The position numbers and the translations under genes were made by a program. DNA of 64,000 nucleotides from Alphaproteobacteria bacterium. GTDB taxonomy: Bacteria > Pseudomonadota > Alphaproteobacteria > Methylaequorales > Methylaequoraceae. Positions within the stretch are counted from its first letter, which is position 1; each line of letters starts with the position of its first letter. Below are positions 31,405-34,400 of this stretch, piece after piece. The notes under the pieces are model-generated. The model saw only the letters and a list, made by a program, of their open reading frames with translations, was not told where the DNA came from and searched no databases. The stretch lies in the NCBI GenBank assembly GCA_019650635.1, contig BOXE01000006.1, positions 1,176 to 65,175 of the forward strand. The letters run 5' to 3'.

Positions 31405-34400
31405 ATGAAAGGAAATAGTCAACAAATAAATTTCAACGACAGTGGTTTTTTAACTAAGATCTACGCTGGCAGTACCATTGACATTGACGGATTACCAAGC
31501 TGGTTACCAAAGGCTAATTTTTCGAAAACGCAAACAGACCTTCTAATTACTTCACCAGCTGGCGATGAAATATTATTAGTAGATTTTTTTACAAACTTTG
31601 AACTTCCCTCACTCAAAACTGAAAATGGTTTATTACTTAAAGGCACTTTAATTGATACTTTATCTGGATCATTTACACCTGGACAGTATGCGCAAGCCAA
31701 TAATGCAAACGCACTTTCGATTGGAGAAGTTTCCAGTGTTACAGGAGAGGCTAAAGCAACTCGTTTGGACGGAACAACTGTAAATCTCTCAACTGGAGAT
31801 CCAGTTTTTCAGGGAGATACTGTAGAAACTACTGGGGCAGGAGCAATTGGATTAGTATTTCTTGATAAAACAACTCTCTCATTATCGGAGGGTGGAAAAA
31901 TGGTTTTAGATGAACTTGTATATGACCCAGCAACTGGAACTGGAAGTATGGCCGTTGACATGGTTGAGGGAGCTTTCAGTTTTGTGAGTGGCGAGATTGC
32001 TAAAACTGGGCCAGATGCAATGAAAGTTTCGACACCTGTCGCAACTATTGGGATAAGAGGAACTACGGTTGCAGGTAAAGCTGCAGTTGAAGGCAATGAA
32101 AACTCCTTTACACTTCTACAAGACGCTGATGGAGGAGTAGGACAAATATCTGTGAGTAATGCTGGGGGAACTCAAGTTCTAGCACAGGTTGGTGCGACTA
32201 CAAGTATAACGAGTTTTACAGCTCCACCTCCACCACCAATTATTTTAAGTGCAGCACAAATTCAAGCAAATTATGGTACAGCTTTAAATGTTTTACCACC
32301 AACTCCTGTGGTTGCTCCAACACCACAACCACCTCCACCGCCTCAAGAACAACAGCAGGAGCAAGTTCAAGAAGAGGAGTCTCAAGAGGAAGAAGAGGCA
32401 GTAGAAGAGGAGGCTGTTGAAGAGGAATTGCAAGAGGAGGGAGAAGGTCCTCCAGAAGGAGAGGAAGGAGAAGGTCCTCCAGAAGGTCCTCTAGAGAAGA
32501 AGGAGAAGGTCCTCCAGAAGGAGAAGAGGGCCCGCCAATTGGTCCTGATGGAGAACCCTAGCAGAAGAAGGACCTCCCGAAGGAGAGGCCCGCCGATTGG
32601 ACCTGATGGAGAGCCATTAGCAGAAGGAGAAGGCGGCCCACCATGGACCTGATGGAGAACCCTTACCACCCGGAGAAGGCGGTCCGCCGATTGGACACGA
32701 TGGAGAGCCACTGGCTGACGGTCCACCAATAGGACCTGATGGAGAACCCTTACCACCTGGAGATTTTGGTCCTGGAGGCCCGCCGATTGGACCGGATGGA
32801 GAGCCACTAGCTGACGGTCCACCAATAGGACCTGATGGAGAACCCCTGCCACCTGGAGATTTTGGTCCTGGTGGTCCTACACCTGAACAAGACGCAGCTG
32901 CAAGAGAGGCTTTTGAAACTGCATTGGCCGCCGGTTTATCTCCTGAAGAAGCAATGGCAGAAGCTGCTGCTGCTGCTGGAATTCCTCCACCACCAGGAGG
33001 GTTCGGAGGAGATCCTTTGTCAGCAACAGTTGGAGGTGATGAGTTTGCAGGAGGTCCTCTTGGTCCAGGCGGTCCAGGAGATTTCGGTCCGGGAGGTCCA
33101 GGAGATTTCGGTCCGGGAGGTCCAGGAGATTTTGGTCCAGGGCGGTCCAGGAGACTTTGGTCCGGGAGGTCCAGGAGATTTTGGTCCGGGTGGTCCAGGA
33201 GATTTTGGTCCTGGTGGCCCAGGAGATTTTGGTCCGGGTGGCCCAGGAGACTTTGGTCCGGGTGGCCCTGATGATTTTGGTTTTGGAGGTCCAGGAGATT
33301 TTGGTCCAGGAGGCCCAGGAGATTTTGGTCCTGGAGGTCCTGGTGGATTCGGTGATCCACTTTCATTCTTAGGACCAGCTCCTGATAATGCCGCAACTTT
33401 TGCGCCTCTAGGTGGTCCAATGGATCCTAATGATCCATTTGCTGCTTTCGGGGGGAATGCTTTTGGTGATAGCCCAATTGGTTTGCCAGGTGGTGGTGGC
33501 GGTCCTGGTGGTCCAGGAGACTTTGGTCCTGGAGGTCCTGGTGGTCCAGCAGACTTCGGTCCTGGAGGTCCTGGTGGTCCAGGAGATTTTGGACCAGGTG
33601 GAGGACCTGGAAATTTCGATTCTGGCTCAGGCGGTGATCAAGGGTCCTTTGGAACTTTTCTTCCACCAGGTTCTTTTCAACCACCTGGTACTGTTCAACA
33701 GCCAGGTGCTTATATCCCAGCTCAAGTAGGTTTTGCTCCAATTGCACCTGTTACAACAGCTCCCGTAATTGGTTCGGGTTTTTCAGCCAACGATGGTGGT
33801 GGTTTTCATGGAGGTCCTGGTGGACCTGCAGGTTTTGATCCAGGTGGTGGAGGTCCCGGTGATTTTGGTCCAGGTGGTCCAGGTGGTCCAGGTGGTCCCG
33901 GTGATTTTGGTCCGGGAGGTCCAGGAGACTTTGGTCCAGGAGGCCCTGGTGGATTTGGTCCAGCTGGCTTTGGTCCTGATGGCTTTGGTCCTGATGGCTT
34001 TGGTCCAGGAGGCTTTGGTCCAGGAGCTTTGGTCCTGGAGGTTTCGGTCCAGCGGGTTTGGTCCTGCGGGTTTTGGTCCTGGAGGTTTTGGTCCTGGAGG
34101 TTTTGGTCCTGGAGGTTTTGGTCCTGCAGGTTTTGGTCCTGCAGGTTTTGGTCCTGCAGGCTTTGATCCATATGGTCCTGATCCCCTTGGTGGAGTACCT
34201 GCTGGAGATTTTTATTATGAAGATCCAAGTATGTTTGAGAATGTTGGAGAAGCAGAAGGTTCTGAATCTGGAAGTGGAAGTGGAAGAAGTGGAAGTAGTG
34301 GAACTACATTCATAGGATCAAATAATGTTGATAACGTTGATAAATCTGCGGAAGCTACCGCATGGCGCTTTGAGGGTTACAGCGGGGCAGATGTTTTTAA

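Follow-up and report, generated by a model that had tools for sequence, protein, structure and literature searches.

A FecR-type N-terminal domain in type I secreted RTX proteins of uncultured Alphaproteobacteria: a putative retention plug with a candidate self-cleaving bond

Two groups of proteins provide the closest described parallels for the N-terminal domain found in the RTX proteins analyzed here, which are encoded by two tandem paralogous genes (paralogue 1 and paralogue 2) in a stretch of 64,000 nucleotides (hereinafter the window, by which the entire stretch is meant) of contig BOXE01000006.1 from an alphaproteobacterial genome (GCA_019650635.1). In the first group, RIN (PDB entry 5IX9), the N-terminal domain that the Marinomonas adhesin MpIBP has in the periplasm, is proposed to be too large for passage through TolC and hence to function as a plug that keeps MpIBP on the cell (PMC5550230); the same structure served as the template on which the LapA retention module was modeled (10.1101/198937). 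In the second group, the sigma regulator FecR of Escherichia coli cleaves itself between Gly181 and Thr182 in the cytoplasm, with the fragments remaining associated (PMC12036975), and FoxR cleaves itself between Gly191 and Thr192 via an N-O acyl shift (PMC9249621). Because the Gly-Thr pair is not conserved among all such sigma regulators, it is not required by the fold (PMC7186176). A single domain in the proteins described here appears to join homology to the LapA/MpIBP plug, in its front half, with the Gly-Thr of the exact FecR cleavage site, in its back half, and thereby links two literatures that we have not seen citing each other, those on cell-surface-signaling sigma regulators and on adhesin retention modules. 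These proteins represent a family of RTX proteins with a full FecR-type N-terminal domain and type I secretion, which is large and so far unstudied; no published description of FecR-domain RTX proteins was found, either in general or in HIMB59/AEGEAN-169-type genomes.

Paralogue 1 (31405..34948, + strand) and paralogue 2 (35029..37654, + strand) share the same architecture, namely an N-terminal FecR-type domain, a Pro/Glu-rich linker, GPGGPGDF repeats, RTX repeats and a C-terminal secretion region, with a better RTX block in paralogue 2. Both genes are frameshifted in the window (paralogue 1 several times), and both are intact in the 95%-identical locus of the single-cell genome (SAG) AG-903-D15 (hereinafter L002), where they form open reading frames (ORFs) of 1160 amino acids (9911..13393) and 884 amino acids (13474..16128), respectively. 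The preliminary description of this DNA drew attention to a 37-codon segment that is invariant at the protein level between the paralogues (A213-S249, 32041..32151, + strand, within the + strand ORF 31405..32652 in paralogue 1; A246-S282, 35764..35874, + strand, in paralogue 2, where the ORF is 35029..36168, + strand). No frameshift of the window falls in this segment.

Pfam identifies FecR (PF04773) as the sole N-terminal family in both proteins, with RTX repeats at the C-terminus; DUF4880 and FecR_C are detected only in E. coli FecR. The FecR match covers residues 138-226 of paralogue 1 (positions 1-80 of the 97 in the profile) and residues 171-259 of paralogue 2, with scores of 31.3 and 29.4 bits, respectively (28.8 and 27.7 bits for the intact L002 proteins), the gathering cut-off being 24 bits. 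Residues 1-320 of paralogue 1, modeled with AlphaFold2 on the basis of 66 homologues (predicted local distance difference test score, pLDDT, 88.2; predicted template modeling score, pTM, 0.84), are predicted to form a small N-terminal unit followed by a beta domain of the PupR CJM-like type (residues ~107-270, 31723..32214, + strand), with strands at residues 214-218, 221-226, 233-238, 247-251, 256-259 and 264-268 and then a helix at residues 283-295. A Foldseek search started with this model identifies FecR-type domains with the probability of 1.00, E-values from 3.6e-5 to 1.9e-4 and 152-155 aligned columns, among these the PupR CCSSD (6ovk_R, E-value 3.6e-5), which is the periplasmic domain of a sigma regulator, and the anti-sigma protein BDI_1681 (4m0h and 4m0n, E-values of about 1e-4, ~153 aligned columns). 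The preliminary description had placed the invariant segment just after the globular N-terminal domain; instead, it lies inside the Pfam FecR match and, in the model, supplies four strands of the domain (214-218, 221-226, 233-238 and 247-251). By Pfam and the model, the segment makes up the final third of a FecR-type beta domain (PF04773, PupR "CJM" fold) and not a linker. At face value, the invariant segment is an ordinary conserved domain core.

Comparison of the family profile with all PDB sequences yields a single match, 5IX9, with an E-value of 5.6e-9 over query residues 109-185, and Foldseek superimposes the model on 5IX9 with a target TM-score of 0.77 and a root-mean-square deviation of 1.5 Å. 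The NCBIfam profile NF033682, retention_LapA, gives 25.9 bits for paralogue 1 and 24.7 bits for paralogue 2 against a cut-off of 50, with the match in paralogue 1 spanning residues 107-171 and profile positions 4-68 of 145. As judged by these sequence matches, homology to the folded portion of the MpIBP/LapA retention plug extends over the front half of the FecR-type domain (residues ~107-185), and the back half, which holds the invariant segment, is without a counterpart in the LapA-type module. Thus, of the initial idea that the segment follows a retention module, the relationship of the N-terminal domain to the LapA-type module stands, and the segment itself belongs to the half of the domain that the two do not share.

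The preliminary description counted 19 codons with synonymous differences and no amino acid change among the 37 codons of the segment (32041-32151 versus 35764-35874), and this count is exact in an ungapped codon alignment. The run of identical protein sequence between the paralogues is longer than noted there, comprising 40 residues (T210-S249), and the near identity reported from VATIGIRGT onward is reproduced as well, with only 6 of the 90 residues from V212 to P301 differing. By the Nei-Gojobori method, the proportion of synonymous differences (pS) in the segment is 0.655 and that of nonsynonymous differences (pN) is 0.012, the remainder in pN arising from a synonymous path of two steps. 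For the full alignment of 290 codons, the respective values are 0.65 and 0.17, and pN reaches 0.27 in the N-terminal 102 codons. Fourfold degenerate sites in the segment differ in 13 of 22 cases, the fraction expected at saturation being 0.66 for the A/T-rich codon usage of this DNA (the G+C content of the window is 30.5%). Across the low-GC clade (44 distinct copies), amino acid changes are absent at 25 of the 37 positions, which use a mean of 4.3 distinct codons per site. Given that synonymous sites are saturated and that the copies group by orthologue rather than by genome, the initial interpretation, strong purifying selection as opposed to recent gene conversion, is upheld. We conclude that this selection reflects the domain core together with the GIRG(T/S) motif discussed below, and not a recognition site for the LapG protease.

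Judging from the aligned copies, the true invariant of the family is GIRG(T/S) (G216-T220 in paralogue 1, 32050..32064, + strand, with G219 encoded at 32059-32061 and T220 at 32062-32064; the Gly-Thr of paralogue 2 is at 35782-35787) and not the di-alanine A226-A227 (gct gca, 32080..32085, + strand; 35803-35808 in paralogue 2), which is found six residues downstream of this motif and closes strand 221-226 on its C-terminal side. The motif is present in all 92 copies that come from the window and 74 related loci, with Thr in 89 and Ser in 3 and nothing else at the last position; a single apparent exception proved to be a chance match on the other strand. The invariant positions of this region in the 66 homologues, which were picked by overall similarity, are T210, P211, R218, G219 and T220, and the sequence right after GIRG(T/S) diverges freely outside the low-GC clade. 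The three GIRGS copies, in which a hydroxyl nucleophile would be retained, come from freshwater Rhodospirillaceae-type metagenome-assembled genomes (MAGs; L045, L049 and L050, at about position 10586 in each).

The position of this motif relative to the cleavage site of FecR was determined by a truncation test bridged by Pfam, in which FecR cut after G181 and the RTX domain cut after G219 were both compared with the FecR profile. The E. coli K-12 fecR product was checked to read LTALG|TEFTV at 181|182. Both truncated sequences stop at profile position 75, so that G219-T220 occupies the same Pfam column pair (75|76) as Gly181-Thr182 of FecR; the di-alanine corresponds to Q188-Q189 of FecR, at the end of the next strand. 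In the model, G219-T220 form a two-residue turn between two strands. The suggestion that the segment contains a processing site accordingly changes its place: such a site is not at Ala-Ala and, given the column match and the conservation in all 92 copies, may be at Gly219-Thr220. With regard to the peptides involved, trypsin would cut after R218 to give GTTVAGK, and a chain starting at T220 would read TTVAGK / TTVAGKAAVEGNENSFTLLQDADGGVGQISVSNAGGTQVLAQVGATTSITSF. As to Gly-Thr cleavage outside the sigma regulators, no usable literature was found on a link between the processing of LipL45 and its FecR domain.

The explanation that we regard as moderately probable overall is that the segment is part of a FecR-type domain core and that this domain is the N-terminal plug of a type I secreted RTX protein, possibly with an autoproteolytic joint. 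Substrates of type I systems leave the cell C-terminus first and unfolded; under this scheme, the FecR-type domain could fold in the cytoplasm, as that of FecR does, so that the folded domain at the trailing N-terminus should stall at the TolC-like channel. The chain, which is long, rich in Gly and Pro and for the most part disordered, would then be kept on the surface of the cell by the stalled plug; surface retention thus follows, in the proposal, from C-first unfolded export combined with cytoplasmic folding of the trailing domain. By analogy with the RIN domain, a function of the FecR-type domain in retention is what we infer. Less firmly, the analogy with FecR and the column match suggest that the Gly219-Thr220 bond might self-cleave, in which case the plug would contain a non-covalent joint and the chain could be released without a LapG protease. 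If cleavage at G219|T220 does occur, it would demonstrate a protease-independent route for the anchoring and release of type I substrates, and a surface coat of disordered protein would be indicated for small-genome bacterioplankton.

Several observations weigh against this explanation. The retention_LapA match is below the curated cut-off (25.9 versus 50 bits) and covers profile positions 4-68 only. The column mapping rests on the Pfam bridge because direct alignment of the family with E. coli FecR failed, both between profiles (hhalign probability of 0.2, in the wrong register) and between profile and sequence (no hmmsearch match). A purely structural role, that of the tight turn, could account for the conservation of the Gly-Thr, and the restriction to Thr or Ser fits a nucleophile without being a proof of one. 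Furthermore, the ABC transporter encoded in the locus is without the N-terminal domain that is typical of transporters of retained adhesins, and the proteins, at ~900-1200 amino acids and mostly disordered, are unlike the Ig-repeat adhesins.

A serious alternative, to which we assign an appreciable if minor probability, is plain conservation of a domain with no processing or retention. The domain would then be secreted and act outside the cell, e.g., by binding a partner or ligand as FecR and PupR bind the signaling domain of a transducer, and the segment would be kept merely as a hydrophobic core and binding face. The evidence on the fold from Pfam, the model and Foldseek is equally compatible with this possibility; the block GAFSFVSGEIAK (residues 189-200) shows a degree of conservation similar to that of the segment; in sigma regulators, FecR-type domains serve as modules for protein binding (PMC7186176); and the absence of a LapB-type ABC transporter fits as well. 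However, plain conservation offers no reason for a strict G-(T/S) in 92 copies at ~40% overall identity when neighboring strand residues vary, and it does not account for the homology with a domain that is known to act as a periplasmic plug in RTX proteins. In addition, an N-terminal domain capable of folding in the cytoplasm is expected to hinder passage through TolC, as would follow from the work on MpIBP and FecR (PMC5550230, PMC12036975).

The plug explanation can be extended to a more elaborate scheme, which we consider unlikely as a whole. Here, the plug would cleave itself and hold the chain at the surface non-covalently, and the elastomer-like Gly/Pro-rich RTX chain could be released by force or unfolding, without LapG and LapD. 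In these Alphaproteobacteria, which are widespread in the sea and in fresh water, the process may be tied to the cyclase, cyclic nucleotide monophosphate (cNMP)-binding and CHASE2 genes that recur in these loci, and the LapA-type modules would be a shortened derivative of the domain in which release has been handed to a separate protease.

The proposal that AGKAAVEG is a LapG-type site following a retention module, at which a periplasmic protease of the BTLCP/LapG type would cut A226|A227 and release the protein, is very improbable. Substrates of LapG have been defined as RTX proteins of more than 1000 amino acids with a [T/A/P]AA[G/V] motif within residues 80-150, in a flexible stretch that comes after a targeting helix and a DP turn, from genomes that encode LapG (PF06035) and LapD (PF16448), often close to the secretion genes, as well as a transporter of the LapB type in which there is an additional N-terminal domain (10.1101/198937; PMC13090378). 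The relationship of the N-terminal domain to the LapA/MpIBP module speaks for such a site, as does the linear distance, the di-alanine being a few tens of residues past the part that aligns with the module. However, the context GKAAVE (residues 224-229) has a Lys at the first motif position and so does not fit [T/A/P]AA[G/V], and no copy among the 92 fits the motif at this site; even the near-canonical AAAIG of PA1874 is not cut by LapG (10.1101/198937). Residues A226-A227 are outside the 80-150 range, are not preceded by a targeting helix or DP turn, and form the end of predicted strand 221-226 (pLDDT of ~87-93) rather than part of a flexible linker. With respect to length and RTX content, intact paralogue 1 has 1160 amino acids and weak RTX repeats (HemolysinCabind, 18.7 bits), and paralogue 2 has 884 amino acids and clear RTX repeats (52.7 bits) with one strict motif.

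Conservation of the di-alanine is likewise divided. It is present in all 47 copies of the low-GC clade, as KAA(V/I/L), which is a point in favor of the LapG proposal, but 36 of the 45 other copies are without it (it is found in 9) and read, e.g., DVKP, GVNA, ETGG or KAGA at this position; in the 66 homologues, A226 is at least 90% conserved and A227 less than that. The expectation that relatives would preserve the segment with its di-alanine is thus borne out within the low-GC clade and not beyond it. The only other N-terminal di-alanine of the protein is in LSAAQI at residue 283. This falls in the conserved helix AAQIQANYGTALN (residues 283-295, 32251..32289, + strand), a high-confidence prediction directly after a PPPPP stretch and the second conserved block pointed out in the preliminary description. 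An AAAG in the middle of the protein (residue 527 in paralogue 1 and residue 466 in paralogue 2 of L002) does fit [T/A/P]AA[G/V], but was rejected as a candidate site, being far from the N-terminus and replaced by AVAG, EVSG or ATGG in homologues.

A LapG-like protease was also sought. Among the ORFs of the window that were scanned, neither PF06035 (Peptidase_C93) nor PF16448 was detected; the other ORFs in the window with 100 or more amino acids, judged by eye, look like housekeeping or membrane proteins. Nor is either family among those listed for 129 ORFs of ten diverse related 20-kb loci, where the list comprises every family with two or more matching ORFs, plus one out of 112 families with a single match, so that a single occurrence is possible. 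The ABC protein of the locus (529 amino acids) has its best, weak match in the LssB family, far below the cut-off and from profile position 140 onward, which indicates that the LapB-type N-terminal domain (~125 amino acids) is lacking; a C39-like N-terminal domain is absent as well. On all these grounds, the LapG idea fails.

Finally, recent gene conversion or very recent duplication, or selection on the nucleic acid as such (through gene overlap or RNA structure), is refuted as the source of the identity. The genes are in tandem with repeats in common, and the beginning of the segment is also covered by an antisense ORF (31809..32096), but each copy in the window is 98% identical in nucleotides to its L002 orthologue in the segment and only 82% to its paralogue, which excludes conversion in this lineage along with the synonymous saturation given above (pS 0.655; 13 of 22 fourfold sites), and synonymous change runs free in the segment, which leaves no room for nucleotide-level constraint, with no family match at the segment in an Rfam scan.

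On its N-terminal side, the FecR-type domain is preceded by the small unit mentioned above (residues ~31-100 of paralogue 1, window 31495-31700), which shows the family-wide pattern F.R.G.DL.L....G....V.DYF......P.L.T..G..I.G. This unit has no Pfam match with an E-value below 0.01; it presumably resembles the "HCBP_related" type of module that is common in RTX proteins. On the C-terminal side, a linker rich in Pro and Glu comes first, then a short helical motif that is conserved, repeats of the GPGGPGDF type over ~350 residues, a short block of RTX repeats and, last, the secretion signal; the region of paralogue 1 between the N-terminal domain and the last 250 residues contains 32% Gly and 22% Pro. 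The GPGGPGDF / GFGPxGFGP repeats (window 33060-34169, with shifted frames; L002 11500-12650), which we take to resemble elastomeric GPGGX motifs, are a frequent place for the assemblies of relatives to end (e.g., L001 and L004), presumably due to the repeats. Amid the low-complexity linker, both paralogues contain an Ala-rich helical motif, AAREAFDTALAAGxSPEEAMAEAAAAAG (L002 11411-11503, residues 501-531 of paralogue 1; L002 14791-14883, residues 440-470 of paralogue 2; within ORF 36237-36626 in the window), which is also found in the distant homologues P0023, P0031, P0039, P0087 and P0117.

The RTX genes are flanked by genes for type I secretion components on the same strand. A TolC-family outer-membrane channel is encoded upstream (30008..31348, + strand; Pfam OEP, 1.5e-53; TIGR01844, E-value 2.5e-55), for which the TIGR01844 score of 188.2 bits is below the curated cut-off of 225.15 and the Pfam OEP match supports the assignment as a channel. 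Downstream are the type I secretion ABC permease/ATPase (37707..39295, + strand), split in the window by a 1-bp deletion and 529 amino acids long in L002, and the HlyD-family type I secretion adaptor (39300..40571, + strand; TIGR01843, 1.8e-86, above the cut-off; Pfam HlyD_3). The order TolC, RTX paralogues, ABC, HlyD is also found in L002 and L013. Together with the HemolysinCabind repeats, these neighbors bear out the initial assignment of the two genes as RTX substrates of the adjacent type I secretion system. In DNA this rich in A/T, scanning the locus for promoters and terminators yielded no useful information.

The first homologue search detected 759 homologues, and the 74 genomic loci that were retrieved come from uncultured marine and freshwater Alphaproteobacteria. 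The closest relatives are encoded in single-cell genomes and MAGs of uncultured marine Alphaproteobacteria, and the more distant members (40-50% identity) in Rhodospirillales-type MAGs from the sea and lakes; some members are annotated by NCBI as "FecR domain-containing protein". Families that recur in the ten related loci are OEP (5), HlyD (5), cNMP_binding (4), ABC (3), Guanylate_cyc (3) and CHASE2 (2), and no cyclic di-GMP (c-di-GMP) signaling family is among the families listed for these loci. This hints at cNMP control of the secretion systems, a possible parallel to the c-di-GMP control of Lap systems.

In the window itself, a GAF-PAS adenylate/guanylate cyclase is encoded directly upstream of the operon (27305-29243), and, judged by eye, an apparent CHASE2-type cyclase (43896-46278) and apparent small cNMP-binding proteins (42985-43881) are also encoded. 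Between the upstream cyclase and the TolC gene, there is a conserved ORF for 250 amino acids (window 29210-29962; L002 7719-8471) without a Pfam match, in which an HD...H motif (ALTHDMNHQG) seen by eye is reminiscent of HD-type phosphohydrolases/phosphodiesterases. Its product could be a degrading partner of the cyclase. This ORF was also considered as a release protease non-homologous to LapG and was rejected, having no Pfam match and looking by eye like an HD-type hydrolase.

A second type I secretion cluster is located on the - strand of the window (46263-52821). It includes an HlyD adaptor that carries a cyclic-nucleotide-binding domain at its N-terminus (46263-47987), an ABC transporter matched by an HlyB-family model along nearly its whole length, the N-terminal region included (47994-50165), a protein of 321 amino acids that has GPDGPPPGDMGPGGM repeats but matches no family (50395-51360) and, judged by eye, an apparent split TolC-type protein (51699-52821). 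Rfam identifies tRNA genes at 17237-17309 (+), 52932-53005 (+) and 54278-54351 (-). A stop-to-stop frame with Sel1 repeats (52942-53664, + strand) begins inside the second of these, with the ORF proper starting from 53017.

Reading frames of the window call for caution. Relative to the 95%-identical L002, it contains 28 insertions and deletions of a length that is not a multiple of three over ~21 kb, several of which cluster in both RTX genes, the upstream cyclase (768 amino acids when intact, in L002) and the ABC transporter gene, and the L002 copies of the genes broken in this way are intact over the ~21 kb that L002 covers. Genes split by 1-2-bp insertions or deletions are found at window positions 10652-16156, 17926-19992, 27151-27249, 28745, 32493-34619, 36127-36617 and 38548; split housekeeping genes elsewhere in the window look by eye like uvrA, gyrA and recG. 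The frameshifts look like assembly errors or strain-specific decay, and an ORF-based reading of the window is unreliable.

Compared with the described systems, the N-terminal domain of these RTX proteins shares its fold with FecR, FoxR and PupR (PF04773; PupR CJM, 6OVK; BDI_1681, 4M0H), as indicated by Pfam and Foldseek. Unlike those sigma regulators, which carry an anti-sigma domain, a transmembrane helix and a C-terminal STN/FecR_C region, the RTX proteins are without these parts, and the FecR domain is located at the N-terminus of an RTX protein of ~900-1200 amino acids encoded next to type I secretion genes. With MpIBP and LapA, they have in common the N-terminal placement in an RTX type I substrate, a homologous beta-sandwich of ~75 residues and adjacent secretion genes. 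The differences are that the domain, being a full FecR-type domain, is about twice the length of the LapA/MpIBP module; that a helix and a Pro-rich linker come after it, in the place of the targeting helix, DP turn and [T/A/P]AAG of the LapA-type module; that the protein body consists of disordered Gly/Pro repeats, in contrast to the Ig-like repeats of LapA-type adhesins; that Lap systems encode LapG and LapD, neither of which was found near the locus among the scanned ORFs; and that the LapB-type ABC transporter of Lap systems has an N-terminal domain that is lacking in the transporter encoded here. Outside these groups, the SEA and GAIN domains are autoproteolytic non-covalent joints, in which a Gly-(Ser/Thr) bond is situated at a tight beta-turn and the fragments are held together by a shared sheet. 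FecR behaves like such a joint (PMC12036975), and the likeness of SEA and GAIN to the domain described here is meant as an analogy, with no claim of homology. The domain, the secretion route and the principle of retention are each known, and it is their combination in these proteins that suggests a testable mechanism of protease-independent release.

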